Assembly: GCA_965153355.1 (NCBI GenBank)
Contig: OZ231126.1
Span: 38,440,001 to 38,504,000, forward strand
Source: Flaccisagitta enflata
Lineage: Eukaryota
DNA: 64,000 bases
Direction of reading: 5' to 3'
Below, piece after piece: positions 124 to 33,600 of this stretch. The notes below the pieces were generated by a model. That model saw only the letters and a program-made list of their open reading frames with translations, was not told where the DNA came from and did not search any database. Position numbers and translations under genes: made by a program. The number at the start of each line of letters is the position of its first letter. The stretch's first letter is position 1.

Positions 124-1035
124 GTACAAAGAATTTAGTTAAAAAATTCAAACGTCGGTCGTCCATCCCTCTTCTAAAAATGGTTACAGGCAAATTTTAA
201 ATTACCACCTGTCCCTATCCATTTAACAAGTAGTCAATAAGTAGTCGCTTGCAGGTCGGCAGGGGCAGTAATTTGGGTGGGCAGGGGCAGTTTGTGGTTG
301 AGCGGGTGCAATAATGTGACTGGGCAGGGGCCTTAATGCTCAACAATTGCCATTACAGCCTATTTCGCACCTTTGATTTTCGCGTTATGGATCTTCCTCC
401 CTTCCAACTAAGGGACACACTATCTTTTAGAGTCACTTAGCAAGGGACTAAAAAGCGTACTAATGAGCTCAAGTTTATCCTCGCGAAACATGGCTGCCCG
501 AGCCTTGAATTAATCCTTTTTAGCGCCGACTGCGCTTTCTTTGACGTTAAGATACTCAAACACCATTTTTCTTGCCCATACTTTTTTTGGCAGCGGCCCC
601 AAAGGGCCAATGTCCTTTTAAACACAGGGGCAAAATTTGTATGTTTGTACCGTCTTTCCATCCCCCCTTGAGGCTTAAAGCTCTTTGCGGTCAGATACCA
701 GCCCAATTAGGCCTGAAATGAGCTCTCTCAGGCCTGAGATGAGCTCTCTCTGGCCTGAAATCAGCCCTTTCAGGCCTGAATTTAGCTGTCTTAGGTCTGA
801 AATTAGTTCCTCCAGACCTGAAATCATTCTTTGAGGCTTCAAATTTGCCTCCTCAGGATGTCTTGAAATTCACCCCTGTGTTCTACTAAACATTTGCCCT
901 TTAGAGCCACTGTCCTGCTCTTACTCTACTTCATCACTTAATAATTACTAGCAGAGCATCGGTTACCTCTGACCATGTGCAATCCTTGGAAGGTTTAGTT
1001 CTTGTCATTTCATCATCCCATTTTTGTTTCAACAG

Positions 1036-3185: not shown

Positions 3186-3648
3186 TTAGTTTTGGTGTCG
3201 GGCATGGAAAAATGTCAAGGAATCCTCTGATTCATTGTCGCTGTAGACTGTTCCACATTATGTCCCGTTCTTCCATGCCCAGGCGGAGATGGATTGGGCT
3301 TTTGCATTTGCGCAAATTTCCATTTGATACTTTTCAAATAATAAAACATTTTTTTTGTAATTAATTTTTTTTCCTCTGGAGCAAGAAAATGAAAGCTATG
3401 AACGGGAGATTTTCAACAATCTTGTAACATAAACATGATGCATCCCTCACAAACTATACTATCGTACCAATAAAGGCGGCTCTCGCCGACCGGAAAAAAG
3501 TCGTAAATGGGAGTCTTTTTTTTCATTGCATCTTGTTTTTGTTATTCAATCTGTCTCTCTGCGTCTCTTTTTTGGTCTTCCTTTGTCTTTTAGTGTGTGC
3601 GTGTGTGCTTGCGTGTGTGTGTGTCTCTCTCTCTTTCTCTCTCTCTCA

Positions 3649-3679
<31 letters not shown>

Positions 3680-5029
3680 GGGGGAGTGTGAGTCTCTCTC
3701 TGTCTTTTTCTTTCTCTTTCCCTTTCTATTTTCTTTCTCTCTCACTCTCTCTCTTTCTCTCTCTCAAGCAGAATAAAATGCAAAAGCTAGCGTCATAAAA
3801 CTCAGGGTCAATTTGTGTAACATCCTGACTCTTCTGTACTGTTACATAGAGGCCAAAAAATAGGATCAATGAAAAATCTCGATTTTCGCAAAAATGCGAA
3901 AAAATAAAAAACGATTAAAAAATTCATAGCGCCAAAACTAATGATCGTAGAGACTTCTGGTTGGCGCCATTTGAAAGAGAAAAATTAGCTCTTTCTTAGC
4001 TGTGAATATCAAAAAATGTATACTCCCAGCCCCAAAACTGCCCAACTTGCTAAAATTGCCTCAAACCGAAAATGGAAAACTTTATTTCTCCCCTACATTT
4101 CAAAAAGTCGAATTACGTAATTCGACTTTTTTCCAATGATCTTTTCTTAGATATTGATAAAATTCTAATTTCTATGCTAATTATATTCTAATCTTTTGTA
4201 CTGTCTTTGGTCCTGTAATTGTGAACGTGAGAACTGTAAATGAAAGTACATTGTAAAGTGTGGCTAGTGATGCGGGAGTAAGTATATGTGAAATGGCAAG
4301 ATAAGTAAAAAAGCATTGCAATGTTAGTCACGGGTATGTTTGGCTTACTAAAACAATCATCTGTCCCTAGTACCTGCCTCCCAATTTGTCATTTTCTATA
4401 ATTGCTCAAGTTATACAACACGCTTTGAATTGCTACGGACCACGAAAGTACTTCATCTTTTAAACCTTTGTCTCTGGCCTCTTTTCGCTTGACGTCATCC
4501 ACTATATGTACACTAATATGCGTGTAAATTTCGATATATTTGCTGGTTTCTGAAGAGCGCGCATTCTGTAAGAAACCCCCTTGATGAAGGCTATAGAATA
4601 AGGAGGTGAACCTCTTCCTACGGTCCTTTTTTCAAAAGGATAACTCCTCCCTCACACCCACCATCCAACCGGGCTCACGGTAAAAAATGAATGAATTTTC
4701 CTTTTTCCCGATCCCGACCTCTACCTCAACCTTCCTTTTCGTTTTATTGATTTATCCAAACAATTGCATATCATTGGTCGCGTGCACGCAAGTCTATAAC
4801 TTCTTTTTATCTCTTCCTGTCGGTCGCTTCGTCTGTTGGTCCATTCAATTCATGAAGGTCGAATCATTTTAGGTCATTCTAATCATTTTTGAGATTGTTG
4901 AGGTCAGTAAAGCCACTCATGAGATCAATCAAGATAAATCAGAATTTTAGGATGCGATCATGCGTGCTTACGACTTTTAAGGTGGTCACCAGCCGCTTTG
5001 TCAGTCTATCGGAAATTCTGTATACTTTA

Positions 5030-11206: not shown

Positions 11207-11718
11207 GGTTGGTGCCTGGGCGTCACTTTATTTGTCAGTCAGACTCAATGTCTGTTTTCCTGTCAGTTTGTCTAACTTGTATCGATTACTTGGATGACAG
11301 AAGTAGGCACCAACCATTTTGAGATCATCTGTCCGTCTATCTCTTTGGTCGTCCGATCATCCGACCGTTCACCCACTCATTCAAAGTTACGATTTGCCGT
11401 GGGCATTGTCTTTGCCTATTTCTCCTTGTTTTCCTTTTCCTCTCAGTCTTACTCATTCTTTCTCATTAATTAAGCTGCGATTTTTTACGTTTTCTGTGGC
11501 ATTTGAAATCTTCGATGATCCGTTGTGATCCGGTCTTCCAAAGTTGTTGTTATCCGGCTCTTATAGTTGTGATCCGGTAATTATTTTCCACTACCAGATG
11601 TCGATCGCTGTGAGAATCTCCACATTCCCCACCATCTCCAGGTCAAGAAGCGCTCGATCGGACGCATTCGACTCCGCGGATCCGGAGAATAGGAGGGGCT
11701 CTCTCGCCATCGAAAATC

Positions 11719-11870
11719 CAAGATGGCGTCCGCTCGACTGCAGAGTGGAGGAAATCGAGGAAGAAGGAGAGAGATCTTCGATCGACGGAGGAAGGGGAGG
11801 AACGCGCGCGCGCGCCGGAAGCGCTGACTTCCGGTTGAGAATTGATGAACTATATCTTCTCAACCGCTTA
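11719..11870 (+). promoter_or_regulatory. Candidate LTR promoter elements (YY1-like CAAGATGGCG, paired ETS-like CCGGAAG/ACTTCCGG, inverted repeat CGGTTGAGAA..TTCTCAACCG)
   Basis: Motif matches in the CpG-rich half of the LTR; the same motifs are retained in the diverged solo LTR at 30910-31697. Confidence 0.4.
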
Positions 11871-12129
11871 GAGGAGGAAAGACTTCGACCCCTCTATCGA
11901 ATTCCCACGACGTGACGAGTCTGTTTATTATTGTTTCATTGCTGCCAAATAATTTCAAATCTCGTGATGTTTTGACTCATTTTGCTATTTCCAGGTTAAG
12001 TAAAAGTAGCTTCCTGACTTTCTTTCTGACATTCGATTACACGATCTCAGTTAAAGACTCGATTTTTGATGCTTTTTCCCCGACTTCCCTGCCCTGCGCC
12101 TAGATTGGAAACCGTTAGACAACATCCGT

Positions 12130-12229
12130 GTAAGTCCTTGACCTTTTATCATTTTGGCGCCATATAGAAGTATCCTTCATTGATGTACAGAGCTTGTCTT
12201 AACTTTTTCCTTTTTTCTCTGTCCGTCAG
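12130..12229 (+). other. Putative 100-nt intron inside the LTR
   Basis: GTAAGT donor at 12130-12135, and a polypyrimidine tract plus CAG ending at 12229. Both are conserved in the 3' LTR and the solo LTR. Confidence 0.55.
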
Positions 12230-12393
12230 GATTCCACGAATAGACTGATTTCGTGGACAACTTGACCGCTCATCTCAACAATTCGTCCTAAGCGGGTGTG
12301 CGTTCCAAATCTTTAGCGCAGCTACGCAGTGGAGTCAGTTCTCGCGATTACGCATCAGGAGCTTGCTAAGAAACTAGACGCTAAACGCTCTCA

Positions 12394-12405
12394 ATTCGTG
12401 GAATC
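12394..12405 (+). promoter_or_regulatory. Non-tRNA primer-binding site, complementary to LTR nt 12230-12241
   Basis: ATTCGTGGAATC immediately follows the LTR-terminal CA and is the exact reverse complement of GATTCCACGAAT at 12230-12241. Confidence 0.7.
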
Positions 12406-12437
12406 AAAAACCATCAACGATCCACGCAACGTCAACG

Positions 12438-15400
12438 ATGTCGACCGCCAACAACAACGCCAACGCCGACGCGATGTCAATGCCGCCACCTTCGCTGCCC
12501 AATCAACGCAGAAAAGCCTTTCGTCCAGCCGACTGTGTGTCTGTCGTTTCCGACTCATCTGTCTACGCGGGCGCAATGGACCCCGTGGCTACGACGCTTC
12601 ACGGATTACGATTGGCGCTACGCAACACGCGCAACGCCTACATGTCGGCGTTGAAACAAGCCGATACCCTCGACGACGACGATATATTGGACTTTTACCA
12701 AGATATGGACTGCCTTCGAAAGGAGGTGTGGTTAGCGGCGTGGCGACTTGTCAACCAGACAAAGACTTACTCACATGCAGAGTCGACCAACAATCCCGAC
12801 AAAGCGGCGTCACTGTTATCGACTGCCGAAAGCTCATTGACGGAAGTACGAAACTGTGGGACCAATCATGCTTCCACGATAAAAACACTTTTGCGTCGCA
12901 TCTATTCCTGCCGACCTACCACGACATCCACGACGATTCACCAGAGACTGGAGCAAAACGCGCTCTCGAGATGACGATGGGGTCGTCGACGCATTTCGTC
13001 CAGTCCCTTTCACGACGACGCAAATCGACGCCGAACACAACCGGCGACGATGGAGACGCGGGAGAGGACGACTTGCCCGTCGGTACGGAAGCGGCGAATC
13101 TCAATGCAGCGGAACAACGCCACAACGCGCCGCCCCATACGCCAGGCGCGATACAAGACGCCGAGGAGATACGTATAAACTTTGAACCTCCGACGCCGGC
13201 GACGCCGGCGAGGTCGCGCTTCCTGTCGGCTAGAGACGATGGAGACGATGACGCCGACGACGCGATGGAAACGTCATGGCCGAACAACGACGCCGACCTC
13301 CCTCCAGGCGCCGTTGGCGGCGCCCCTCCCACACAAGATCTTCTCAACATGCTACAGCAGTCGATCGTCGACGGCGACAAAAACGCTCAAGGCGACGCGA
13401 TGGTGAACGTCGTCCAACGTCTTGTCAACGACGTCAACCAAGTCCGACGCTCGGTGGCGAGAGAAGCACGCGCAAACACGCGATTCCGTCTCAGCTCGCG
13501 ATCTGTATCTCAACAACGCGAAGAAAATGCCCGGCAGTTGACGGCAAACATCGCATTAGACGCAGCCGTTACTGCCCGGACAGACGCGGTCACTGCCGGA
13601 ATTGACGAGAGGAAAAAAGGGGAGGAGGAGGAGAGGAGGAAGAAAGAGAAGGAGGAGGAGGAGGAGAGACAACGCATCCACGCTGAAGAAGTGAGAAGGA
13701 AGGCAGAGGAGAGAGAAAGGAGCAGGAGGAGAAAAGGAGGACGAACTTGAAAAACAAGATCGCCCAGGAGAAAAGAGAGAAAGAGGAGAGAGAAGAAAAG
13801 AAAAGGAAGGAAGCAGAGAGGAAAGCAGAGGAGGAGAGAAGGAAGGCGGTGGCAAAAAGAGACGCGGAAGAAAGAAAGAGGATGGAGGAGAAGAAAAGAC
13901 GCGAAGAGAAGAAAAAGGAGGAAGAGAAGAAAAAGAAAGAGGAGGAGGAGAGGAAGAGGAGAGAGGCGCAAAAGAAAAGCCAGCAGAGACAACCACCTTC
14001 CAAGACGCCACCCCCAGCCGCACGTGAACATCCTCTCCACGAGCAACTGCGCACGAGACAAGATGCAGCGGAGCAAGAAAAGTATGCGATGGATCACGCG
14101 GACGCAATGGCAAGGGTCCAACAATTGATCAGCGACCTCAACCTGGAGGACAGCGTCGTTTTGCAGACACGTGTTCCACCGCGCAAATCGACGCCGCCAT
14201 CACCAAGCTCACCCGTCATCGTCCGCCAGATCGCGGGTGATCTTCCAGCTCCGCAAGCGGCCCGAAATGCACGCGGGAGTCAGCGCCCTCTGGTCGACGA
14301 CGTCTTCGATGACGAGGGGTTCGAACGCGTCGACAGACGGAAGTCGAGGAAGTCGCCACCCCCAACGCCGTCGCCTCCTATGTATCAAAGACGTCAAACC
14401 GGAAGTGACTCCGCGCGAAATGGCCTCGCACATTCGCAGTCCTTCGCCGAGAGGATGAACGCCGCCTCTTTCATCGACAACCCGATCGCCTACGACGCCC
14501 GCGTCAGAGCAAAGGACGTGGGATTGAGAGAAATGCGCGCAGCACGCCCAAGAGAAGCGTATGGATACCTCGAGCCGATCGACTACATCATCGCCAAGTC
14601 TAAATTCGAAAATGCCGCCTCCAACATCGAGCTAGACGAAATCGACAAAGTGACTGAATTGGCCAACGTCTTCGCGAATCCAGCGAAGGAAATTATCGAC
14701 GGTCAACAACTGATCATCAAGGCGCACAATATGCGCCGTGTCTACAGCACCTTGTGGAGACGCCTGGACGAGATGTTCAACACGAGCGCCAACCCATTCC
14801 AATCGGCCGTCGACAGCATCTGCAGGAAAGGAAAGGTCCCAGAAAACGATATGAGAGCCCATCAATCATTGATTGGCACGTTGTACAAACTGGAAAACGT
14901 CGCAGAATTGCTGAATGTACCCGGAGAGTGTGATCGTGACGTCCACATTCGCCGCATCATCAACGCGAGGGTGCCACACATCTCGACGGACTATTGGAAA
15001 GCAAGCGCGCGTGAACAAGCTCGCCATGGCACGGCTTACGGCTTCCAAGAACTCATCGAGGAAGTGAAACATTGGGTATCGTACAACAACCTCAAAGAAC
15101 CAACACGCATGGCGCCGAAACCGACGAAGGTTGCAGCGACTGCAGTTGGTCCGGCGACGTTTAAGGAACAGCTCGTCAACTCACCTCCGAAACAGCAACC
15201 CAACGACATCTGCAATATTTGTGGAGGTCGTCACAATTCTCATTCGTGCAATGTTTTGGAAGCCATCCCATCAGCAGAGGATCGAGTGAAGAAGTTGGCG
15301 GAGAAACGTCTATGTTTTCATTGTTTCTGCCCAAACCATTCGGCGCGCGACTGCAAAGACAAGCCAACATGCTCATCTTGCAACAAGAGACACGCAACTT

Positions 15401-15579
15401 TGCTGCACGACCGCCAATGGAAGCCAAAAGGGAATGGAGAAGGAATCACGTTCAAGACGCCGAATGCCGCCGCATTAGCCGCAGCCGCTGCCGCCGCCAA
15501 AACCGTTCCTCCAGCACCCCCAAGCAGCTCGTCGACGGATGACTCTGCATCTGATGAAGGAAGGGTGATGGAGGCATGA
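12438..15579 (+). CDS. gag: BEL/Pao gag (about two frameshifts in this copy or assembly)
   Basis: Joined from ORFs 12438-12974, 12329-13750 and 13747-15579. Long E/K/R coiled coil; C-terminal knuckles CNICGGRHNSHSC, CFHCFCPNHSARDC and CSSCNKRHATLLH. Confidence 0.85.
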
Positions 15580-18500
15580 CTCGCTGCCACCTCCGCGATG
15601 AGGACGGTGGTCGCGGAGGATGATGTCACGCGACCGATTGTTCCTGTAAAGATCACCAACGCATCGACGGGCCGTTCCACCGTAGTGTTGGGGATGATCG
15701 ACAGCGGTGCGGATCGTGACGTTTTATCGTTTCAAATCGTTAAAAAATTAGACTTACCAACTGAAAAGATGCTGATGCGCGTGCATACGGTCAATTGTGA
15801 GGTGGTGGAGGAGAAAGTTTTGGCGTCCTTCATCCTTTCATCGATTGACGAGGAATACAACGTCCACATCAGCAACGCACTTACGGGAGAATTATTGACG
15901 GGTGAAGCGGATATTGCTCCATGCCAACGCGACTTCACAAATCAATCTCATCTTCGCGATATTCCATTTCCAAAAGCAAATGGTCCTGTCCAATTGATCA
16001 TCGGCGCCGCCCATTACGACGCGACGATGCCCGTGGAGGCAAGAAGAGGTCCATCAGGATCTTTGACAGCCTTCAGATGCGGTTTTGGATGGACTGTAGC
16101 AGGGAAGAGTGGACGAAGATCAGATGATACCGCTGTCATTAACGCAATCCACGTGGATAACGCCGCATTGAGCAAATCTCTCGACCGCATGTTCTATCAC
16201 GACTTCGCCATGTGTCGGAGGAAGAAATGGGCCAGTCTGAAGAGAATCGTCGCGCGGTGAAACGAGTGATGGAGACGATATACTTCGACGAGAAACTCCA
16301 AAAATACGTCGTGGGACTTCCATGGCGCTATGACAAGGAGAAGATCATCGAGATTATCAAATCCGTTAACGCACGCGCGATGACGATTAAGAGGACAAAA
16401 AGTCTCCGATACAAACTCTCAAATAATCATGACCTCCGCGATCGCGTCTTCAAAGAAATGGACAAATTTGAGGATACGGGCGTGGCGATTGAGATTGATC
16501 CGACGAATGACGACGCAAGCATCTCATCGCCACGCTGGTACTTGCCTATCCATGTAGTGGAGGAAAGAAATAAAACGCGGATTTGTCACGATGGACGCGC
16601 GGAGACTGGCGGCATTTGCCTCAATGAACTACTGATTGGAGGTCCGAATATCATGAACGTCTTGACTGAAGTTCTTATGAAATTTCGCCTTTATAAAATC
16701 GGTCTGATGACTGATATAAAGGCGTTCTTTCATAATGTCCGCGTCCATCCTGAGGACGCGGACACGTTCAGATATATGTGGTTCACTGACAAAAGCATGA
16801 GAGAGGCAGTCGTGATGCTCTTCTTGGCGCACATTTTTGGATCTGTGTCATCGAGTCTCGTCACCAGCTATGTTTTACGCCATCACGCAGAGAAGATCAA
16901 GCCCGACTTCCCGGAAAACGTCTACGAAATGTTGAGACATGCCTTCTACGTCGATGATGGCTCTGGTGGTGCGGATTCAGTCGACGAAGCACTGCAGCTG
17001 AAGCAGGATCTCATCGCCGCCATGAAAAGCGGCGGATTTACGTTAACTAAATGGAAATCGAACGCGGTGGAGGTGATGGACGACGATCCGAATGTCGCAG
17101 TCGACTTGAGCGCCAAACTCGAGGAGCCGACGAAGGTCTTGGGAGTCCAATGGTTGCCGTCGACGGACTGCTTCATCTTCAGATGCGATCCAGAAGCATG
17201 CAAGAGGGTGGCAACGACTCCTCTGAATTGGTCTCCATGCAAGCCGACAACTATGATCCCTTAGGCTTCACTGCCCCCCGCGCCCTTGAAGGGAGGAGGT
17301 GTCTTCAGTTGACGAGAGCTTCCGAGAAGGGATGGGATTCGACGATGGAGGAGGCGTTAATCAAACGCTTCGCCAAATGGTACTCTGCGACTCCATTGCT
17401 GATCCAGATTGAAATTCCGCGCCACATTGAATGGGGCATTGTGAAGGCCGTTCGACGTGAAGTTCACATCTTCTGCGACGCCGCCATCCCTGGTTTTGGG
17501 GTAGTGGGCTAGTGGTTGGTGGAAGATGAGGATGGAACAATCCGCGTTACCATTTTGTGCGCCAAGGCTCACGTCGTCCCTCTTGATGCGTCAAAAGCGT
17601 CGCACCATAATTCAGTGCCGAGGTTAGAAATGACAGCGGCAGAGAAAGCGGTGAAACTCAAACTTTTCATCAAGAGGACCATTCCAAAGGTGACTGAGGA
17701 CATGGTGACGCTCTGGTCAGATTCAGAGGCGGTGCTGAAGATGATTTTCGACCATAAGTCTAAACGCCCAAGCTTCTTCGCAAACCGACTTTCAAAAATC
17801 CACAGCGGCTCAAGTGATTCCCAATGGAGGTGGGTTGATTCGGAGAATAACTCGCGGACTATTGTTCGCGGGGTATTGATGCCGGCTGACTATGAAAAAT
17901 GGGACATCTTCCATTTCGGTCCGAAGTTTCTCTACCTTCCCAAATCTGAGTGGCCGGTGATGAACATCGCGACGGCGCCGGAAGCGTCAATCAACGCCGT
18001 CGCGACGGAAACGGTGGAGGAGAAGGAAGGAGAGAAGGAAAAGGAGATGTTCGCTTATGCAGTCGCCGCCCGTCGCCAGGAGTGGGTGGCGAAATTGCGT
18101 TTGATCGCCGTGGTTGTGAAGTGCACGCAGCGATGGAGACAGAAGGTGAAGGCAAAAACTAGAACAGCGACAACGACGCTGCCAAATCCATACTCTGTAT
18201 CTATGGCTGAATTGTACGACGCACAACGCCGCTTGATCAACGCGATCCAGTTCAAACATTTCCATGGAGAAATAACCAAGTTGAAGGCGGTGGGAAAAAC
18301 GACGCCGCTGATCAACGACGCCGGCGCCAAAGTGATCTGCAAAACCTTACGCCATCACAATCCGTTGTCGACGAGAAAGGAACGATGCGTGTCGGGAGCA
18401 GACTCGTGAATGCGGATATCGGCCATGATGAAAAATACCCGATGATTCTCCCGTCGAAAGATCCAAACGTCGCTTCTCTGATTCGCCATGTCCATCATCA

Positions 18501-19593
18501 GGATCTTCATGCAGGCCCAAAACACGTCTTGTGCCAACTGCGACGCTTTGTGTGGATTCTTCGTGGTCTCCAGGCGGTGAAGACAGTCATCCACCATTGT
18601 GTTACGTGCCAAAGGAACTTTAAAGATCCTATGAAGCAGCAGATGGCGCCTCTTCCTCAACGTCGGCTTATTCCAACGGCCCCCTTCGAGGAGGTGGGAC
18701 TCGACTGCATGGGTCACTTCCTGGTGAAACTAAATGGAAGAGCGGATCACAAAGTCTGGGCAGTGGTGTTTACATGCATGGTTTCAAGGGCGGTGCATGT
18801 GGAGGTGTTGTTTAAAATGGACACAGAGGCAATGATCAACGCCATCATTAGATTCGCGGCGAGACGGCAAACGGTGCGTCGCTTCATATCAGACTGTGGT
18901 ACCAACCTAGTTGGGGCGAATCGCGTCATGAAGGAGGAGATGCAGTCGTGGAACGCGTCGTCGACGGTGGCTCTGCAGCAGCATGGACTCCAATGGGACT
19001 TCATTCCTCCGGGGACTCCTCATTACGGCGGCGTATGGGAAAGGGTCGTATCCCTTTTCAAAAAACATTTGGCGTCCATTACTTCCGGTCACGTGCTCCA
19101 TTATGACGTCTTCCAAACGGCGGTGATTGAGGTGGAAGGAATTCTCAACCGTCGACCTCTCACGCCTTTGAGCGACGATCCTAGCGATACATCAGCGCTG
19201 AGGCCGGTCAACATCTTGCATCCGTCGACGTTCTCACACTCGTCGGCAGCGATTCTTCCTCCAGAGACCGGAAACGACGCCGTGGGAACGAGATGCCGAT
19301 GGAGAAACGCACAGGCCCGCGTTGACGCCTTCTGGAAGGTATGGCGCGCTGAATACCTTCAGTTGCTGCACGCAAGGAGCAAATGGACAAAGTCGGAAGT
19401 TAACATCAAAAAAGATGCATTGGTCATCATCGTTGACGAGACGCTTCATCGGCATCAGTGGTCTTTGGGACGCGTCGTCGAAGTGGAAGGATCTGGTGGT
19501 CATGTCCGGAAAGCACAGATCCGACGCCCCGACGGCAAGATTGTCCTCAAAGATCGGTCGAAGATCGTCCGATTGGAGTTGGATTCAGATTAA
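15580..19593 (+). pseudogene. pol: BEL/Pao pol (protease, RT, RNase H, integrase), disrupted by frameshifts and one stop
   Basis: Protease MIDSGAD; RT DIKAFF, IFGSVSS and FYVDD; YDPLG; RNase H HIFCDA, VPRLE and WSDS; integrase HHCC finger plus GLDCMG, ISDCGTN and WERV. Frame breaks near 16210, 17220, 17850 and 18365, and a TAG at 17510-17512. Confidence 0.92.
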
Positions 19594-20135
19594 AAACGGA
19601 TAAGTGTGAAGAGAGAGAGAGAAAGTAGACCAGAGAGAAGCACAAGTGTTTCTATTTGTAAAGACTATGCAGAAAATGAGGATTTTTTTCTCATGATTAT
19701 TTTTTGGTCTTGTTTACTTTTTCTCAGTCGGTCTGTCTGATATGTCTTTGTGTGTAATGACAGGAGAGAGAGAGGTACATGGTGCCCCAGTCAGTTGAGA
19801 GTGTCCGCATGATTGACTGACAATCTAAATTTTGCCATGCCATTTCAATCTTGTATTGACCATATAAAGGCATTTGTTCGTCATTTTCTTTTCCGTTTTA
19901 TCCATATCATTGACTGTTGAGTATGGAGGTCATTTGAGGCGCTGATCGAAGAGTTTTATTTCTTTGTCTGCGTATACCATTTAATCTTCCTCAATGTTAA
20001 TGGATATGTCTTCCTCTTTCCGTTATGTTACATATCGAAATCTGAATTTTCTCCAAAAACAGGCGTTTACACTATCTTACGCTAAAAGCTTCCCCTTGTC
20101 GGTATCGTCGCATAACTGTTGCAGAAAGATCCATC

Positions 20136-22481
20136 ATGTCGCAGCAGAATAACCAAGGCACGCCGGACGAGATCCGCGAAGCGAGGAGGCAGCGAATGGC
20201 GCAAGCCCAGGCCGATTTGGTGAGGAGTCATGAGGAGGAGACGAGGAGGATGGAGGAGGAGCGGGCGAGAGTGGAAGAGGAGAAGAAGAAAGTGGAAGAA
20301 GAGAAGAAAGACCCGGAGAAGAAGAGGAGGAGACAGGAGCAGGAGGCCAGGGCAGCGTCCCTCAGAGAACAACGCAGGCTTCGCGGGTTGCACCAGTCCG
20401 TCGCTGGAGGAGCTGATGACGTCATCGACGGGGTCAGCCATCTCTTCAACGACTCGTCTTCCGGCGCGTGGACCGTTACGGACCCTCTTCCTGCTCGGGC
20501 CCTCAACGCGTTCGATGCCAACGCCTTTGCCGACAAGCGCGCCGCCGGTGAAGCGCGTCGTCAAGCCGACGATGCGCTCCGGGCGGCAAGAAAGGCGAAA
20601 CGACAACAAGCTGCCAACGAAAGCTTCGATACGGCAGTCTTGGGAGTGGAGGCGCTCATGGGGGAGTCGACGTCGACCTCCACCACGGACGCCCCCCCGC
20701 CGCCACGCGGAGCAGAGGAAGTGGAGCGACAGGATGTAAATGACCCTGACAACTTGGACTTTGACGATGACGACGACGACGACGACGACGATGACGATTA
20801 CGAGACTCAGGATGACAGTGAGGGCGATAAGATGGACACTAACGAACATGACGGAAGGGGAGAGGGACTTCCTCCCGGGGAGGTTGCTCGACCCGACTCT
20901 ACAGGCCCCCAAGGGGTACTTACTGCTCCTTCCCTTGCTCCCCCAATTCTGCCGCCGCCGCCGCAGACGTCGCAGGCGGTCGTGGAGTCGCCGACGTTAC
21001 AAGTAACGCCGGCCGCAGACTCGACCGCGCCGGCGCCGTTTCAAGCATCACCTGACGCGACGCTGGTGATCCCGCCGTACATCAGTGATCTGTCCTCCAT
21101 CTCGCAGGAACAAGCTGTCGAATTGGTGAAGATCTACAACGCCCAAGTCGACGCCCTCATCGAGCGGAAGCACACTGCGATATACCACGACACGCAGCGT
21201 CGCCTACGCGCGGAGAGAGATGCTCTTCATCCACAAGCCGAGCGAAGAGCATATGTTCCGACACAAAGAGTTAGAGACGAATTAGTTGAAGAGGACGGTG
21301 AGATTGCGACGGTTGAAACACGCGAGACGCTCCAATTGTGCAAGATCATCAACATCAGATCTATTGGAGCAACGGCGGACATGGGAAATGGGACTTTGAG
21401 TGACATTTCCAATGGAAAAGCCTCAAATCAGAGGAAAAGACGACGTGAAGGAGCTGCTCGTCGGATCGCAGAGGCTATTCGTTCGACCGGAAGTGGCAGC
21501 GATCAGCGTCAAACGCCCGCGACGCAGGATCCTCCACAACATCATCCAAGAGACGATCGACGAGCCAATGCTGGCGCCAACAATCTGCAAATCGAAGTGA
21601 GAGAGAAGAGACGTCGGGTGAGCAGGGGTGGACCGCCGGATGCATCCGCATCGTTATCATCGACGGTGATGGATGGTCCCGCGAGATTACCACATGATCC
21701 CGCTCCCCGGCCTCCTCCTCCTCAACGCCAGCGGTCACGTGACATTTCACCAATCCGTGTCCCAACTCAAACGACGACGACAACGAACAATCAAGGGGGT
21801 GTGCTCGCAGGGGCAGCCGCAAATCTGCCCCCACCTCCTCCTCCTCCCGTCAACGACGACCAACAGCGACGAGAGGAGCAAAACGCCAACAAAAAGAAGA
21901 AGAATCGTCGTCCAAAAAGGAAGCCTAGAGATGCGTCGACGTCCAACAGGTCGTCAACGTCGACGGCATCCGCTTCTTCTCCTTCACATCGCCCTCCCCG
22001 ATCGCCGGAGGACCTTCTGACCGAGGCGATGTTGGCCGTCGCCATCAAGTTGCCAAATCATCCTCGGTCAAAGGATATTCAAAAGGTTGTAGACATTCTT
22101 CCGGCGGCCTTCTATCCCAACTCATCTCCGATGGATCGCGCGATCTACGCTGCCGATCACGCCGTGGATAGAGCCAGATCGGCGAGGAAGCTCATCGAAC
22201 AATACAACTTTAGGATGAAGGTTGTCGGTGAGCACGACGCAAAGGTCGCTCAGATGGCCCAGCTGCTGTCCGACGCGAAGAAGGAAGCCGACCGCGTCCG
22301 CGCTGAGTTTTCTCAGTCCGACGGACAAATGCCGTCGACTTCCGGCACTCAACGCCACTCCGCGCCGTCGAGCGACCACGCGCCACCTTCCGGCAGAAAC
22401 CCCCCTCCACGCCACAGTAGGAAAGACGACGCGCCATCCTATCGTGGAGGAAAGGGCGGCAGGGGTAAAGGCCGGAAGTAG
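20136..22481 (+). CDS. Retrotransposon accessory ORF3, 781 aa, function unknown (not env-like)
   Basis: Intact ATG-to-TAG ORF between integrase and the 3' LTR with the same codon style as gag. It has coiled coils, a poly-Asp tract, Pro-rich regions, basic NLS-like runs and an RGG-like tail. Acceptor-like TTTTCTCCAAAAACAG ends at 20062. Confidence 0.85.
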   Translation: MSQQNNQGTPDEIREARRQRMAQAQADLVRSHEEETRRMEEERARVEEEKKKVEEEKKDPEKKRRRQEQEARAASLREQRRLRGLHQSVAGGADDVIDGVSHLFNDSSSGAWTVTDPLPARALNAFDANAFADKRAAGEARRQADDALRAARKAKRQQAANESFDTAVLGVEALMGESTSTSTTDAPPPPRGAEEVERQDVNDPDNLDFDDDDDDDDDDDDYETQDDSEGDKMDTNEHDGRGEGLPPGEVARPDSTGPQGVLTAPSLAPPILPPPPQTSQAVVESPTLQVTPAADSTAPAPFQASPDATLVIPPYISDLSSISQEQAVELVKIYNAQVDALIERKHTAIYHDTQRRLRAERDALHPQAERRAYVPTQRVRDELVEEDGEIATVETRETLQLCKIINIRSIGATADMGNGTLSDISNGKASNQRKRRREGAARRIAEAIRSTGSGSDQRQTPATQDPPQHHPRDDRRANAGANNLQIEVREKRRRVSRGGPPDASASLSSTVMDGPARLPHDPAPRPPPPQRQRSRDISPIRVPTQTTTTTNNQGGVLAGAAANLPPPPPPPVNDDQQRREEQNANKKKKNRRPKRKPRDASTSNRSSTSTASASSPSHRPPRSPEDLLTEAMLAVAIKLPNHPRSKDIQKVVDILPAAFYPNSSPMDRAIYAADHAVDRARSARKLIEQYNFRMKVVGEHDAKVAQMAQLLSDAKKEADRVRAEFSQSDGQMPSTSGTQRHSAPSSDHAPPSGRNPPPRHSRKDDAPSYRGGKGGRGKGRK

Positions 22482-23307
22482 AGGGTCTCGTCGCCATGAT
22501 CCCGGCCATCGTCTTCCCACTTCAATCGCGCGTATCATACCGACGTTTACGTCGTCGCGGAAGACTAGCGGTTGATCATCCAATGGCGACTCGAGATGCT
22601 TCCGGTGACGGACAGGCCGGCCGCCCTCGCTTCTCTAGAGGGCGGTCGGGGGAGGGGGTCCCACCGGGACCCCCCTGCGACTCTCCCCGTAAGTGTCGAG
22701 GGGTAGGGGGGTCTTGAATTGCTCATGAACCAATTGTACCAAATTAGAATATTAAGCGTATGATTTGTGGAATGAGAATCAGTTCTAACTCTCCTGATCC
22801 GTTTCTCCATACCCATTCCGGGTGTGGGGGAACCCCCCCCCCGCTTACATTTAAGAGACGTGCGTGCTGGAGTGATGGACAATCCTAACTGGGCGTCGGT
22901 ACGTAGTATAGTATAGTTTATACACTAGTATAGACCACTTAGCATATAGGCTAATTATTTATTTCAGTCCATCATTCCCGGGGATCTAGTATCGTTACCT
23001 TTTTTTCTTGTTTAGCATGAAGACTGGAGGCAGAATGGAGCGAGAGGAGCGATTCATGACCAGACCGTAGCGATAGCCCGGACGATCGACGGTGGTAGGT
23101 GTTTCTGCTCCTAGAACCCATTTTCTGAATCGTCTTATCCGCGCGAGATCCACGATATTTATAATGGTGTCTTTGTAATATTTAAAAATTTTTGTTTTTG
23201 AGATGAGCCCCGGATGTTGTCATAGCTTGTAAATTTTTAGAATGAACGGTATTCCCTGACAAGAAACTAGTTAGATACGAGATTTGAAATTTTTTATCAA
23301 ATATTTT

Positions 23308-23317
23308 AAAAGGTGGC
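23308..23317 (+). promoter_or_regulatory. Short polypurine-tract position (AAAAGGTGGC)
   Basis: Purine-rich run directly upstream of the 3' LTR TG; short and imperfect. Confidence 0.5.
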
Positions 23318-24103
23318 TGTGAGAATCTCCACATTCCCCACCATCTCCAGGTCAAGAAGCGCTCGATCGGACGCATTCGACTCCGCGGATCCGGAGAATA
23401 GGAGGGGCTCTCTCGCCATCGAAAATCCAAGATGGCGTCCGCTCGACTGCAGAGTGGAGGAAATCGAGGAAGAAGGAGAGAGATCTTCGATCGACGGAGG
23501 AAGGGGAGGAACGCGCGCGCGCGCCGGAAGCGCTGACTTCCGGTTGAGAATTGATGAACTATATCTTCTCAACCGCTTAGAGGAGGAAAGACTTCGACCC
23601 CTCTATCGAATTCCCACGACGTGACGAGTCTGTTTATTATTGTTTCATTGCTGCCAAATAATTTCAAATCTCGTGATGTTTTGACTCATTTTTGCTATTT
23701 CCAGGTTAAGTAAAAGTAGCTTCCCTGACTTTCTTTCTGACATTCGATTACACGATCTCAGTTAAAGACTCGATTTTTGATGCTTTTTCCCCGACTTCCC
23801 TGCCCTGCGCCTAGATTGGAAACCGTTCGACAACATCCGTGTAAGTCCTTGACCTTTTATCATTTTGGCGCCATATAGAAGTATCCTTCATTGATGTACA
23901 GAGCTTGTCTTAACCTTTTTCCTTTTTCTCTGTCCGTCAGGATTCCACGAATAGACTGATTTCGCGGACAACTTGACCGCTCATCTCAACAATTCGTTCT
24001 AAGCGGGTGTGCGATCCAAATCTTTAGCGCAGCTACGCAGTGGAGTCAGTTTCGCGATAACGCATCAGGAGCTTGCTAAGAAACTAGACGCTAAACGATC
24101 TCA
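23318..24103 (+). repeat. 3' LTR (786 bp)
   Basis: TGTGAGAATC...CGATCTCA, followed by the TSD ATCGC. Confidence 0.95.
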
Positions 24104-24511
24104 ATCGCGTAAATACATTCCGATCAAGATTTTTTGCTTCCGTCATTCGGTAACAAAAAACGGTTTTCCTCCATAGGGCCGTCGATAGGTCCGTCCGTTT
24201 GTCAAGCGTTCAGTTCCATAATTCCAAGTTGATATGCTTACTTCTATACTTTACCTTTCTTAGAAGTTTAAGCGTAACTGCCGCTTGTAGGCGTGGAACA
24301 AGGCCGGATACGCGGCTACCCCAGTCGCGTGCTGGTGAGCAGGGCAAATATTCAGGGTCACTACTCACTAGAGCATTTTGGCAGGAGCAGTAAGGCCTAA
24401 GACCCCCAAAACATAAAAAGTAAAAAGAGGACCGACCGACCAACCAACCGACGGACGGACGGACGGATAAAGCGGGTTGCAGGGCCTGCACGCGGAAAAT
24501 ACAATTACTTT

Positions 24512-24575: not shown

Positions 24576-24727
24576 GCAAATGTCCATTTTCCATGCAAAT
24601 GTCCATTTTCCATTTACCATGCAAATGTCCATTTTCGTTATCGATTGCCTGGTTCGTTATGATAGTAGCTTGCTAAGCGACTCTATAATATCAACATCAT
24701 TATCGTCACCGCCAACATCATCGTTAA

Positions 24728-24815
<88 letters not shown>

Positions 24816-24860
24816 GTCATCATCATCATCATCGTCGTCGTCCTCGTCATCATCATCGTG
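24512..24860. repeat. 19-bp tandem repeat (CCATGCAAATGTCCATTTT) followed by (CAT)n
   Basis: Directly visible. Confidence 0.9.
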
Positions 24861-25396
24861 ATCTTTTTTCTTTCTTTTTTTTTGTGGGAGGGGGGGGGAG
24901 TATCTTCTTCATGATCATGCCCATTTTCCAATCCCCATCGCCTCAACATTATTTTTCACATCATCTTTTTCATCAGGCAAATATTATCAATTCTCTCATC
25001 TTGAACTCGAGAGGTTTCTTCTGGTAAGAGAATGTTGGCAATGTCTTAACCTTTTTTTCTTGTTTTGCTCTGCCTCCTCATTATGACGCTTTTTCCTCAA
25101 ACTGACCCCCGTAAAACCCCTCTTCCCCTTTACCACCCCTCTCTCCGACACGCTTTGTAATAAAGTATTGCTTTTTCTTTTGTAGTAATTTATCGTTAAC
25201 ACTGCTACCATATCCCTTAGCCCTCCAACATCGAGGGAAACAACTCCATTCTCTTCCTGCTACTGTTTCTCTGTTTCTGTCTTTGTATCCCTGCCTCTCT
25301 GTCTTTGAATCTCCCCCAATCCCATGTCTGCCTGTCCGTTTGTCTGTATGTATGTCTGTCCCTCTGTCTGTTAGTCTGTCTGTCTGTCTGTCTGTC

Positions 25397-25506
<110 letters not shown>

Positions 25507-25788
25507 TCCCCCAATTCCCTGTCTATCTGACTGTCTGTCTCTCTCTCCCTGTTCTATTCTCTTCCTAGCATTGAGAGACCACACTAATGCAGGAAACGTG
25601 GTGGAGGAGGCGAAAGAGAAAACCGAAATTTATCAACTTGAAATCTTAGGTGTAGTTGTTTTTGTTTTCGACTAATGATAAGATTAACACCCACCATTTA
25701 CCAGTCTTTTTTAACGAAAAATTCAGTAAATGATGTTCTTCTTGGGCGGAGTGTAAAATGCATACAACGCATATTTTACACAGAAACA

Positions 25789-30604: not shown

Positions 30605-33600
30605 TAGTCCAGGCTTTTTAAAAAAAGCATCGGCGATTCTGCAGCAAAGTCTGAAAATTTGCATACAGGGTCAGTTTTTGATGCTGAACAAGACTAGGAT
30701 CGGTCCACGTCAAAATTTTTTATGGACCTACCTAAAAAATGCATTTTTTCTCAAAAAAAAATTTCAAAATTGCGCCAACGCCAAACCGTTTGACGGATCA
30801 TCATAAAAATTTAGTTGAAGCAAAATATAGGTTTTTTTTACTTCCATTTCAAATTTTATCAAAATTGGTTCACTAGAAGCGGAGATATAGCTGTTTAAAG
30901 TCTGGGCATTGAAAGCGTTTACGGTCTGATTTCCTATCAAGCTCCTGATGCGTAATTGCGAGAACTGACTCCACTGCCGAGCTGCGCTATTGAGTTGGAA
31001 CGTACACCCGCTTATAACGAATTGTTGAGATGAGCGGTCAAGTTGTCCGCGAAATCAGTCTATTCGTGGAATCCTGATGGACAGAGGAAAAGAAAAAGGT
31101 TAAGAACACACTGTACATCAATGATGGATACTACTGTAAATGCGCCAAAAAGAGTAAAAAGGTCAAGGACTTACATGGATGTTGTCGAACGGTTTCCAAT
31201 CTAGGCGCAGGACAGGGAAGTCGAGGGAAAAACATCAAAATCGAGTCTCTAATTGATATTGTGAAGTCAAATGTCAGTAAGAGAGTCGGGGAAGCCACTT
31301 TACTTAACCTATAAATAAATAACACAATAAATCAAAGCATCACGAGATTTGAAATTATTTGGCAGCAATGGAACAACAATAAACGTAAGCGTCGCGTCGT
31401 GGGAATTCGCCAGAGGGGTCGAAGTTGATTCTCCTCTAAGCGGTTGAGGAGATAAGTCCATCAATCCTCAACCGGAAGTCAGCGCTTCCGGGCGCGCGCG
31501 CGTGCCTCCTCTTCCTCCGTCGAGCGAAGATTCTCTCTCCTTTTCCTCGATTTCCTCCACTCGACTGCCGAATGGACGCCATCTTGGATCTTCGACGGCG
31601 AGATATCCTCTCCACTCCTTCGGGATCCGCGGAGTCGATTGCGTTTGATCGAAGGCTTCTTGACCTGAATATGGTGGGGAATGTGCAGAATGTCACAGGT
31701 ATGTTTTTCAAAAAAATGCTATATTTGATTTTTGGCAAAAAAAATTGAAAAAATCATCTTAAGACCCCCAAACTTTTTTTGGATATTACTTTGACCATTT
31801 GACACCTACTGAAAAAAAACGAATAAAAAAAATATTCAGTTTTGCTCCCATTATGGCTAAAAAAACAAAAAATTGGATATCAAAATCTACACCAAATTTT
31901 CAAAAAAAGCTATTTTTGTATAAATAGCCTAATTTTTGATGCCAGCTCCAGGAATCAGTCCTCTATAGGCATATTTACTTGACTGCAAAGTTTTAGAATG
32001 GTCCAAAACCAAAAAAACACAAAAAAACTGTTCAAAGTCTAAAAATTTGGGGCCCAAAATTTTGCATTTTTGGATACCTTTGGACATTTGGCATTGCTAC
32101 GGCCAAACCCTTAGAGCCAGTTGCACCAAATTTTGCATCCAAGTCGCCAATCACCTGGAGCATCTTCGTGCAAAATTTCAGGCCATATAGCCAAGTTTAA
32201 GTAACATTTTTGGGCTAAAAATACCCAAAAAACGCCCAAAAAATGCGAAAAAATGTTTTTTTAGCCATATAGGCTAAACTATGTGTCCCACTATCATGAA
32301 ATTTTGCATTGATGGACTTGACCTCAACATGTACCTGCATGAAAAATTTCATTGGCCTATGATAAGCGGTTTTCTCAAAATTCAATTTTGAATTTTTTCA
32401 AAATTTTGCATTTTCATTTTTGAAATACATTTTTAATTTTTTCAACAAAGATAGAGTGTATCATGATGCACACTATGAGAATTTATTCTTCATAAGCATA
32501 TTCACTTGAGTGCAAAATTTCACAATAGTCCTATAACTCAAAAAACCTAAAATCACTGCTCAAAATCATGATATTAGGGGTACAAAATTTTGCATTTTTG
32601 GACATCTTAGGACATTTTGGCTTGCTACAGTCTAACACCTTGGACTAGTGGCCCCAAATTTTGCATACAGTTTGTCAAGCACCAGGGCCATCTTCATGCA
32701 AAATTTCAGCCTAAAAATCAAATGATTGCAAAAAAATGTTTTTTTAGCCATGCTACAGCCAAACGCCTTGGACTGGTAGCCCCAAATTTTGCATACAGCT
32801 TGTCTAGCACCAGGGCCATCCTCATGCAAAATTTCCGCCTAAAAATCAAATGGTAAATAAGTTTTTTGGCTTAAAAATCCCCAAAAAATGCCCAAAAAAT
32901 GCAAAAAAATGTTTTTTTATTATGCTACAGCCAAACGCCTAAGACTAGTGGCCCCAAATTTGGCATATAGCTTGTCAAGCGCCAGGGCCATTTTCATGCA
33001 AAATTTCAGCCTAAAAATCAAACGATAAGTAGGTTTTTTGGCTTATAAGACCCAAAAAATGCCCAAAAAATGCAAAAAAATGTTTCTTTAGCCATGCTAC
33101 AGCCAAACGCCTTGGACTAGTGGCCCCAAATTTTGCTTACAGCTTTTGAAGCACCAGAGGCATCTTCATGCAAAATTTCAGCCTAGAAATCAAATGACAA
33201 GTAGGTTTTTTGGCTTAAAAATCCCCCAAAAATGCCAAAAAATTGTTTTTTTAGCCATGCTACCGCCAAATGCCTTGGACTAGTGGCCCCAAATTTTGCA
33301 TACAGCTTGTCAAGCACAAGGGCCATCTTCATGCAAAATTTCAGCCTAAAAATCAAATGATAAGTAGGTTTTTTGGCTTAAAAATCCCCCAAAAATGCAA
33401 AAAAATTGCAAAAAAATGTTTTTTTAGCCATGCTACAGCCAAACGCCTTGGACTAGTGGCCCCAAGTTTTGCATATAGCTTGTTAAGCACCAGGGCCATC
33501 CTCATGCCAAATTTCAGCCTGAAAATCAGATGATAAGTATGTTTCAATGCTTAAAAATGCCAAAAAAATGCCAAAAAAAAGCAAAAAAATGTTGTTTTAG

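Follow-up and report, generated by a model that had tools for sequence, protein, structure and literature searches.

What is the long open reading frame that occupies the position of an envelope gene in a BEL/Pao retrotransposon of Flaccisagitta enflata, and what might its product do? The question is raised by a stretch of 64,000 nucleotides (nt) of this genome (GenBank assembly GCA_965153355.1, contig OZ231126.1, positions 38,440,001 to 38,504,000, forward strand; hereafter the window, whose own numbering is used throughout). The window contains a complete long terminal repeat (LTR) retrotransposon of 12,495 bp at 11609–24103. Downstream of the integrase domain of pol lies a third open reading frame (ORF), here called ORF3 (20136–22481, forward strand), which has 781 codons and a stop codon at 22479–22481. 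An initial annotation, made from the letters of the DNA, had described an intact 781-residue ORF in the envelope (env) position and proposed that it encodes a nuclear, largely disordered nucleic-acid-binding protein rather than an envelope. The frame was recovered as described, from the ATG at 20136 to its stop codon, after integrase. Our analysis indicates that ORF3 is very probably a genuine third gene of an active BEL/Pao family and is kept by selection.

Conservation of the third gene

The stop-to-stop frame around ORF3 spans 20046–22481 (811 codons), and its first ATG is at 20136. Given the composition of the region, a stop is expected with a probability of 0.035 per codon (one per 29 codons), and the probability that 811 codons remain open is ~4e-13. 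The longest open frame found in 300 shuffles had 284 codons. The codon use of ORF3 correlates best with that of pol (0.66, compared with 0.50 and 0.16 for two host ORFs), which is weak evidence that ORF3 is a real gene. A stop-free frame of 304 codons also runs antisense, opposite the start of ORF3 (20082–20996, reverse strand); it probably arises from the GC richness and purine skew of the coding strand.

Homologues of ORF3 were compared as protein sequences only. A word-indexed search returned five ORF3 clusters at 55–93% BLASTP identity, three of them full length. The intact homologues are P0001, P0002 and P0003, which are 93%, 78% and 55% identical to the window protein, respectively. The P0001 cluster has 82 members; among the 15 members listed, 11 are intact at 761 amino acids (aa), on contigs of 2.5–10 kb. 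An exhaustive phmmer search of 1.84 billion representatives yielded 15 ORF3 matches, all from its own family and at least 50% identical. Because a search of this size gave only 15 proteins, the family is judged to be real, with a narrow distribution. When the ORF3 alignment was searched over metagenome contigs, 581 pattern matches were obtained, none of which was a relative. Many short contigs (0.6–2.7 kb) in clusters P0001, P0002, P0003, P0005 and P0148 hold only the C-terminal 150/154 or 121 aa, with an internal Met start. Such C-terminal-only contigs occur in both ORF3 families (the second is that of a sister element described below) and may reflect 3'-biased transcript coverage or a shorter product.

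The pattern of change within the family is that of a coding sequence under constraint. When P0003 is aligned with the window ORF3 (775 aligned residues, 60% identity), 11 internal insertion or deletion (indel) events separate the two; all 11 are in frame and no stop codon was gained. Across four ORF3 lineages, 392 of 759 columns are invariant, and these are clustered, falling into 161 runs where 2000 permutations gave 165–213. Several short motifs are preserved almost without exception: DGQ.PSTSGTQR in all 17 rows that cover it, DASTSNRSSTS in 12 of 12, and SRDISPIR in 12 of 13, the remaining row reading PRDISPIR. ORF3 is thus present in other copies and is not decaying neutrally in them, intact ones being found down to ~60% identity. 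It gave no match to a host gene or to a known env, all 15 proteins of the exhaustive search belonging to its own family.

A Pol alignment recovered eight related loci from metagenome contigs, three of which extend at least 650 nt past pol (L002, L005 and L007). All three have a spacer of 334–407 nt after pol, followed by a hydrophilic ORF with neither a membrane segment nor a Pfam match. L002, with a Pol 43% identical to that of the window element, has gag, an in-frame stop, pol, a T-rich spacer of 334 nt and an ORF that starts at 9385 and meets the end of the contig after 392 codons. L005 (Pol 44% identical) has a 358-nt spacer and an ORF of 612 codons (2969–4807). In L007 (Pol 43–44% identical), the spacer is 407 nt and the third ORF is cut after 82 codons. 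The third ORFs of all three loci are poor in Cys and Trp, with a maximum mean Kyte-Doolittle hydropathy over 19 residues of no more than 1.0. The third ORF of L005 represents a cluster with 33 members, of which at least four are intact. Among four copies of this cluster, variable columns number 15 of 612 in the ORF and 27 of 135 in the spacer as translated (Fisher p = 8e-12). This contrast, as read from the aligned copies, is a direct sign of constraint. A post-pol gene for a non-envelope, apparently disordered protein is, judged from these loci, a feature of the clade. A search for distant homology of the window ORF3 to its counterparts in L002 and L005 detected none (blastp and hmmsearch; hhalign probability 1.9%).

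Composition and predicted structure of the ORF3 protein

The ORF3 protein contains one Cys and one Trp; 31% of its residues are Asp, Glu, Lys or Arg and 9% are Pro. No membrane segment was found, the highest mean Kyte-Doolittle value over 19 residues being 0.65, and no signal peptide was found at the N terminus, where the first 30 residues have a mean hydropathy of −1.48. The absence of both features and the near-absence of Cys and Trp had been noted in the initial annotation and hold up in these measurements. Judged by hydropathy, ORF3 therefore lacks the signal peptide and C-terminal anchor that typify env products. It also shows no similarity to env or fusogen families: a search of Pfam at E values up to 10 gave two rows only, both at chance level, and Cauli_VI was not among them. 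A sequence-profile search of the PDB gave a best E value of 1.3, in low-complexity stretches, and neither the whole protein nor aa 615–781 had a usable match in the ESM Atlas. With one Cys, a predicted structure of helices and disorder, and no Foldseek matches, nothing resembling a fusogen fold was seen, although such a fold could be present even where no match is returned. ORF3 does hold five N-x-S/T sequons. Taken together, the lack of a signal peptide, of a membrane segment, of more than one Cys and of any Pfam, PDB or fold match means that ORF3 is almost certainly not an envelope protein, in agreement with the initial annotation.

The idea that ORF3 is a duplicate of gag was raised by features that the two proteins share, namely E/K/R-rich helices, acidic patches, an LPPG-type stretch and Asn-rich N termini. 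It was rejected, as tblastn, hmmsearch, hhalign and blastp returned low-complexity matches only. The Gag and ORF3 proteins of different lineages (window, 12438 and 20136; P0003, P0047 and P0133; L002, 2277) start with Met, Ala/Ser and runs of Asn. Beyond these Asn-rich N termini, no similarity between Gag and ORF3 was detected across lineages.

An AlphaFold2 model of ORF3 was built with a 25-row family alignment. Its mean predicted local distance difference test score (pLDDT) is 51.5 and its predicted template modeling score (pTM) is 0.20. For 484 of the 781 residues (62%), the pLDDT is below 50, which bears out the earlier description of the protein as largely disordered. Five helices stand out (aa 10–85, 129–161, 324–364, 428–450 and 665–725). 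In the model, long helices that stand apart from one another are connected by disordered linkers, and the chain as a whole is hydrophilic. Charge is distributed in blocks, with a net −22 over aa 201–240 and a net +7 over aa 561–600, and Ser/Thr-Pro patches are also present.

The protein begins with a conserved GTP..(I/L)R..R.QR stretch, whose GTP..R.QR core is found in 10 of 10 covering rows. This precedes the first helix (aa 10–85, 20163–20390), which is 55% Glu, Arg or Lys and is predicted with a pLDDT of ~70–83. The initial annotation had called this an N-terminal coiled coil. An E/R/K-rich helix is indeed predicted there, but it has few hydrophobic residues at heptad positions and resembles a single stable helix more than a classical coiled coil. 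The second helix is rich in Ala and Arg (aa 129–161, FADKRAA...ALRAARKAKR, 20520–20618); it is conserved in 13 of 13 covering rows and has a pLDDT of 73–90. An acidic tract follows at aa 203–231 (20742–20828) and includes 12 consecutive Asp residues (aa 210–221), with a GAC repeat in the DNA at 20763–20797. Its length varies between lineages, and it is the least conserved part of ORF3, with a 25-residue indel relative to P0003 and 17–37% invariant columns nearby.

Both of the helical islands proposed earlier are predicted as helices with a pLDDT of ~77–91. The helix of island 1 covers aa 324–364 (21105–21227, pLDDT 77–91); a second helix in this island, at aa 377–414, is a low-confidence prediction. 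The other island is the C-terminal helix described below. The poly-Asp tract, the runs resembling nuclear localization signals (NLS) and the tail are likewise present as listed in the initial annotation (RKRRR at 433, KRRR at 491, KKKKNRRPKRKPR at 586–598 and the RGGKGGRGKGRK tail). The first of these runs lies within the arginine-rich helix aa 428–450 (SNQRKRRREGAARRIAEA, 21417–21485, pLDDT ~69), a candidate RNA-binding motif and NLS. Its core, SNQRKRRREGA (SNQRKRRREGAARR), is predicted to be helical and is identical in 13 of 14 covering rows. The basic cluster at aa 586–598 (KKKKNRRPKRKPR, 21891–21929) is conserved in 12 of 12 covering rows, and the invariant Ser/Thr run DASTSNRSSTS comes after it. 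Residues 624–640 (PEDLLTEAMLAVAIKLP, 22005–22055) are kept in 12 of 12 rows; inside this segment, at aa 628–637, is the sole match in ORF3 to the leucine-rich nuclear export signal (NES) consensus (class 1a), which is kept in all lineages.

The best conserved and most confidently predicted part of the protein is the C-terminal helix of ~61–62 residues (aa 665–725, 22128–22310, pLDDT 74–91), on which three short helices pack. When aa 615–726 were modeled alone, the same arrangement of three short helices beside one 62-residue helix was obtained, with a pLDDT of 74–86; the tail is disordered. Fold searches did not place this structure. The whole ORF3 model gave no Foldseek matches to the PDB, and the C-terminal model gave none at E values up to 0.001. 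A fold search of the C-terminal model that was independent of Foldseek had a best Z of 5.8, with ~50 tied rows that align the long helix only, and is uninformative. The protein ends in an RGG/RG-type tail (aa 769–781, YRGGKGGRGKGRK, 22440–22478), whose core, YRGGKGGRGKG, is identical in 14 of 17 covering rows and present as a variant in one more. RNA-binding proteins of the RGG/RG class have clustered RGG/RG repeats in a disordered region. The ORF3 tail lies where the pLDDT is below 50 and fits this class as a predicted motif, although it is short, with one RGG together with RG and KG repeats.

The element and the layout around ORF3

The element is bounded by a perfect 5-bp target-site duplication, ATCGC, which can be read directly at 11604–11608 and 24104–24108. 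The 5' LTR (11609–12393) and the 3' LTR (23318–24103), delimited by comparison of the pair, have TG...CA ends and are 98.6% identical over 792 columns. Since the Pfam domains RVT_1, Peptidase_A17, Integrase_H2C2, rve and DUF5641 occur in that order, the coding sequence assigns the element to BEL/Pao (Belpaoviridae). LTRs with these ends and a short target-site duplication are as expected of that group, as are the protease, reverse transcriptase, RNase H and integrase order of Pol, its DSGA protease and its Pao-type domains; the Pol proteins of relatives have the same Pfam set. The Belpaoviridae primer-binding site is described as an 18-nt complement of the 3' terminus of tRNA-Arg or tRNA-Gly (International Committee on Taxonomy of Viruses [ICTV] profile, PMC8742986). 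At 12394–12415, directly 3' of the 5' LTR, where this site would be expected, the sequence after TGG is A/T-rich and unlike the complement of a typical tRNA 3' end. The 5' LTR also contains an intron-like pair, a GTAAGT donor-like site at 12130 and a pyrimidine tract with CAG ending at 12229, ~100 nt apart, and this pair is repeated in the 3' LTR.

The gag gene (12438–15579, forward strand) corresponds to ~1049 codons in intact relatives and specifies three zinc knuckles and a long N-terminal extension, which in the window family comprises several hundred residues, including a long E/K/R-rich helical region. It is followed by pol (15598–19593, forward strand), with a DSGA protease, reverse transcriptase, RNase H, integrase and DUF5641 (Pfam). 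Lesions were mapped with tblastn against intact family proteins. In gag, comparison with P0133 located two frameshifts, one near 12851 and one within 13597–14026; in pol, comparison with P0052 located three (near 16212, at 17225–17294 and at 18364–18379) and one clear premature stop, at 17510–17512. The initial annotation had counted about seven disruptions in gag-pol. Six are real lesions, and the seventh, the in-frame stop at 15577–15579, is the natural terminator of gag, because P0133 ends exactly there and P0052 begins just after. P0133 (1049 aa, 93% identical) and P0052 (1332 aa, with the same Pfam set), whose clusters have 43 and 69 members, respectively, are intact, so the coding capacity of the family is complete. 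The contrast between an unbroken ORF3 and a broken gag-pol, which had been emphasized earlier, is present. It is not significant by itself: at the gag-pol lesion rate of this copy, the probability of no lesion in the 2.35 kb of ORF3 is ~0.12, and the intactness of ORF3 in this copy therefore proves little alone.

Other aspects of gag-pol are recorded here. A single in-frame stop between gag and pol also occurs in L002, L004 and L008, which suggests that stop-codon readthrough rather than frameshifting operates at the junction in these loci and in the window. Gag is very long in this clade, with 1049 aa in P0133 and 896–1049 aa in L002 and L008 (the Gag regions are at 12438–15579 in the window, 2226–4967 in L002, 2–1990 in L004 and 205–3354 in L008). 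All five frameshifts in gag-pol of the window copy run in the same direction, and no explanation for this was found. Homopolymer errors in the assembly were considered as their source and are not supported, as three of the five sites have no homopolymer of at least 5 nt nearby.

Between pol and ORF3 lies a T-rich spacer (36% T, 19594–20135), which contains 13 ATGs up to 20025 and is then free of ATG for 111 nt. This layout fits an mRNA exon or 5' end that starts shortly before ORF3, making 20136 the first ATG. Acceptor-like sites occur at 19728, with a strong pyrimidine tract, at 20062 and at 20124, and the leader has a single GTAAGT, the one at 12130. The sister elements have a similar arrangement: the ATG-free stretch before the third ATG is 236 nt in L005, 116 nt in L002 and 82 nt in L007, each such stretch has a YAG preceded by a pyrimidine tract (20062 in the window, 2808 in L005, 9294 in L002 and 2498 in L007), and the ATG has an A at −3 in all four lineages. 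Counts of donor sites in the related leaders are at chance level. An internal promoter would fit the spacer layout as well as splicing. Four RNA-derived runs from one study contain 22–24% of the sampled words of 19594–23315; this weak signal hints at transcription of a near-identical sequence. Runs with a share below 0.2 were left out of account.

An untranslated region of 836 nt separates ORF3 from the 3' LTR (22482–23317). It contains G/C-rich hairpins and ends in the purine tract AAAAGGTGG (23308–23316). The predicted folding energy is −282.5 kcal/mol, compared with a shuffle mean of −252.0 (z = −4.4; none of 20 shuffles was as stable). An inverted repeat is present at 22668–22713, and hairpins formed by G-runs and C-runs lie at ~22615–22720 and 22820–22845. 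Nothing significant was found for this region in Rfam. Its sequence could form a cis-acting RNA element.

The remainder of the window contains a solo LTR of the same family (30908–31698, reverse strand), 86% identical to the LTRs of the element. Long (ATC)n and (TC)n/(TCTG)n microsatellites are located 0.6–1.4 kb from the 3' LTR (24669–24887 and 25303–25516). A gene of the transforming growth factor-beta (TGF-beta) family at 53176–55938 (forward strand) has propeptide and ligand domains in a single frame of 920 codons, with an acidic, low-complexity N-terminal half. An open frame of 728 codons at 999–3185 (forward strand) has the appearance of a multi-pass membrane protein and no Pfam match.

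Proposed role and comparison with known systems

We tentatively propose that ORF3 is a nuclear, RNA-binding export adaptor, analogous to retroviral Rev or to CERV of the Caenorhabditis elegans element Cer1, and that it is produced from a subgenomic mRNA; this is a plausible reading, held with less than even confidence. ORF3 would be translated from an mRNA in which 20136 is the first ATG, formed most likely by splicing from a donor in the leader to an acceptor in the spacer. The basic motifs would carry the protein into the nucleus, where it would bind the unspliced genomic RNA of the element through the arginine-rich helix, the Ala/Arg helix and the RGG tail, and would multimerize through its long helices. 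In this way, ORF3 would allow intron-containing RNA to be exported and used for Gag-Pol. The reasoning is that an element whose ORF3 mRNA is formed by removing gag-pol as an intron must have a way of exporting its unspliced RNA as well. The conserved NES match, the structured 836-nt RNA and the precedent of CERV would all favor such a role. Splicing, nuclear localization, RNA binding, multimerization and export are inferred only, and the terms "nuclear" and "nucleic-acid-binding", both taken from the initial annotation, depend on the conserved basic, arginine-rich and RGG motifs.

Several observations weigh against this proposal or against ORF3 being under selection. Some copies of ORF3 are decayed, with frameshifted tails (P0007, P0012, P0015, P0017 and P0026), as is expected in a transposon family. 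The acceptor-like site at 20062 (AATTTTCTCCAAAAACAG followed by G) exists, as had been reported, but its pyrimidine tract is weak. YAG and GTRAGT are both frequent by chance; L002 has two GTRAGT in 2300 nt, with ~1 expected. The single match to the NES consensus is not above the number in shuffled sequences (mean 2.6). With its 781 aa, ORF3 far exceeds Rev, Rex and Rec in size, and it is without the globular domains of CERV. The third ORFs of L002, L005 and L007 show no detectable similarity to that of the window, or to each other. RGG is absent from L002 and from the 82-aa fragment of L007, and L005 has one internal RGG and no RGG/RG tail. The third genes of the clade are, as far as their sequences tell, constrained within lineages, and between lineages they have been replaced or have diverged beyond recognition. 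Because the third ORFs are unalike, their role may not be the same in every lineage, or it may be a matter of composition and not of particular motifs. A part in host conflict would account for the rapid turnover at least as well as one in export.

Other roles can be weighed against the same evidence. The three roles suggested in the initial annotation, an RNA chaperone for self-priming, an export factor and an anti-silencing factor, are not distinguished by the present evidence. ORF3 could be a cytoplasmic scaffold or RNA chaperone that forms a condensate or viroplasm-like matrix, concentrating Gag, Pol and genomic RNA for particle assembly and reverse transcription; the P6 inclusion-body protein of caulimoviruses, also encoded after pol, would be a comparable case. 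A protein in which 62% of residues are disordered or of low confidence, with blocks of opposite charge, long helices and an RGG tail, would suit this function; a long E/K/R-rich extension is likewise present in the Gag of this element, and the conservation of composition and position across lineages, with loss of sequence, is what would be expected if bulk properties matter. However, the invariant short motifs within the family argue for specific partners over bulk properties alone, the basic clusters resemble nuclear import signals and no Cauli_VI domain was found, and we regard a scaffold as unlikely. If ORF3 were instead an antagonist of host defense, acting for example on the PIWI-interacting RNA (piRNA) or RNA interference (RNAi) pathway or on a restriction factor, an arms race would account for third ORFs that are unrecognizable between elements whose Pol proteins are 43–44% identical and yet constrained within each lineage, as is usual for conflict genes. 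Mimicry of host partners would also suit a protein that is disordered and carries short linear motifs. The Pfam, PDB and fold searches gave no motif or fold link to any known suppressor, and the available text on CERV, an export factor, reports that it too diverges fast (PMC10309623); antagonism of host defense is accordingly rated as quite unlikely here.

The presence of an acidic tract (12 Asp, net −22 over 40 residues) alongside NLS-like basic clusters, in a gene between pol and the 3' LTR, raises the idea of an LTR transactivator, with poly-Asp as the activation domain and basic helices that bind DNA. Foamy-virus Tas and Tax of human T-cell leukemia virus (HTLV) are transactivators of this kind. 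Such a role for ORF3 is improbable: the acidic tract is the least conserved part of the protein, no DNA-binding domain is recognizable in Pfam matches or in the AlphaFold2 model, and RNA, not DNA, is the ligand suggested by the arginine-rich helices and the RGG tail. The position of ORF3 and its five sequons are all that would speak for a degenerate or novel envelope, or for a recently captured fragment of a host gene. This is largely refuted by the missing signal peptide and membrane segment, the single Cys, the absence of Pfam, PDB sequence or fold matches, a codon use closest to that of pol, and the exhaustive search, which revealed no host paralogue among 1.84 billion representatives; the chance that it is correct is very slight. 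A functionless frame, open by chance or through recent copying, would find some encouragement in the non-significant contrast with gag-pol and in the tendency of low-complexity, GC-rich sequence to favor long frames, as the antisense frame illustrates. The length of the open frame, its persistence at 60% identity with every indel in frame, the clustered conservation, the invariant motifs and the contrast between spacer and ORF in a sister lineage are all contrary to it, and it too is largely refuted and has very little probability.

The setting of ORF3 is that of the env-like genes of other BEL/Pao elements. Belpaoviridae are described as having gag, pol and, sometimes, an env-like gene, with genomes of 4.2–10 kb (ICTV profile, PMC8742986); at 12.5 kb, the present element exceeds this range. 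The third genes of roo, Tas and Cer7 are env-like, and those of mosquito elements resemble glycoprotein B, in the accessible parts of the sources (PMC8742986, PMC3118150, PMC13524379). Like ORF3, these genes sit between pol and the 3' LTR in BEL/Pao elements. They differ in specifying glycoproteins or fusogen-like proteins, whereas ORF3 has neither signal peptide nor anchor, no fusogen similarity and a single Cys. In the portions available of de la Chaux and Wagner (2011) and of a 2026 eLife study of env elements, only env-like extra genes are described for BEL/Pao (PMC3118150, PMC13524379), and no report of a non-env third gene in BEL/Pao was found in open-access literature text. In plants, long LTR retrotransposons may have additional ORFs (aORFs) between pol and the 3' LTR, which the consulted passages describe as often lineage-specific and of unknown function (PMC7264820, PMC11963269). 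They belong to Ty3/gypsy lineages of plants, and no sequence relation to ORF3 was found. Like the product of ORF3, the P6 protein of caulimoviruses is a large protein of a reverse-transcribing element encoded after pol. P6 (transactivator/viroplasmin, the inclusion-body protein) is multifunctional and non-structural, is made from its own mRNA and has self-associating helices, RNA-binding regions and shuttling signals. It differs from ORF3 in host, plant rather than animal, and ORF3 has no match to Pfam Cauli_VI.

What ORF3 adds to the established concept of a non-env accessory gene is a protein family, and a host lineage of elements, that are both new. The third gene is conserved and clearly non-env, its family has no detectable relatives, and in sister elements the corresponding position is occupied by other proteins of like character. 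It is possible, although we hold this loosely and as a speculation, that a clade of marine-animal BEL/Pao elements are "complex" retroelements, with a giant Gag, gag-pol readthrough and a fast-evolving, disordered, non-env regulator made from a subgenomic mRNA, and that ORF3 is an independently evolved adaptor of the Rev or CERV type. If so, this would be the first regulatory accessory gene described for Belpaoviridae, and such regulators would arise repeatedly, perhaps de novo, in retrotransposons. Should ORF3 regulate its own RNA, "complex" organization would have evolved in a third lineage of LTR elements, besides retroviruses and Cer1 (Ty3/gypsy). The system would then also offer a tractable case for the birth and turnover of disordered accessory proteins under host conflict, with built-in comparators in the spacer, the constrained ORF and the several lineages. 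When animal retrotransposons are annotated, a long ORF after pol that lacks env features should be neither dismissed nor called env by position alone.

The closest parallels to the proposed adaptor are CERV and the export proteins of complex retroviruses. CERV is described, in the sections of the report that concern it, as a non-env, nuclear, fast-diverging protein made from a spliced mRNA and required for export of unspliced genomic RNA; its sequence includes KRKK as a candidate NLS, together with a candidate NES and a helix of the coiled-coil type, and its 517 aa include H, M and G (G-protein-like) domains, a Cys-rich loop and N-terminal exons shared with gag (PMC10309623). Both CERV and ORF3 are non-env accessory proteins additional to the gag and pol products of an LTR retrotransposon, and both diverge fast and are without homologues outside a narrow host group. 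The NLS-like and NES-like motifs of ORF3 appear analogous to those of CERV, and its layout is plausibly that of a spliced mRNA. Cer1 is, in contrast, a Ty3/gypsy element, and the element described here is BEL/Pao. ORF3 has 781 aa, one Cys and, in the model, no globular domain (pTM 0.20), and it is, as read from DNA alone, a separate post-pol ORF with its own ATG and no similarity to gag. The H, M and G domains and Cys-rich loop of the CERV family were not seen in ORF3, and the exhaustive phmmer search found its own family only; no direct alignment to CERV was made.

Retroviral RNA-export adaptors include Rev of human immunodeficiency virus (HIV), Rex of HTLV, Rec of human endogenous retrovirus K (HERV-K) and Rem of mouse mammary tumor virus (MMTV). 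ORF3 is five to seven times larger than these proteins and mostly disordered, it has an acidic tract and an RGG tail in addition, and no homology to them was found. Rev is also described in the CERV report (PMC10309623). ORF3 resembles these adaptors in having an arginine-rich motif that could contact RNA and direct nuclear import, a leucine-rich NES-like motif and helices of a kind that could support multimerization, and in being encoded 3' of pol with a structured RNA region nearby.

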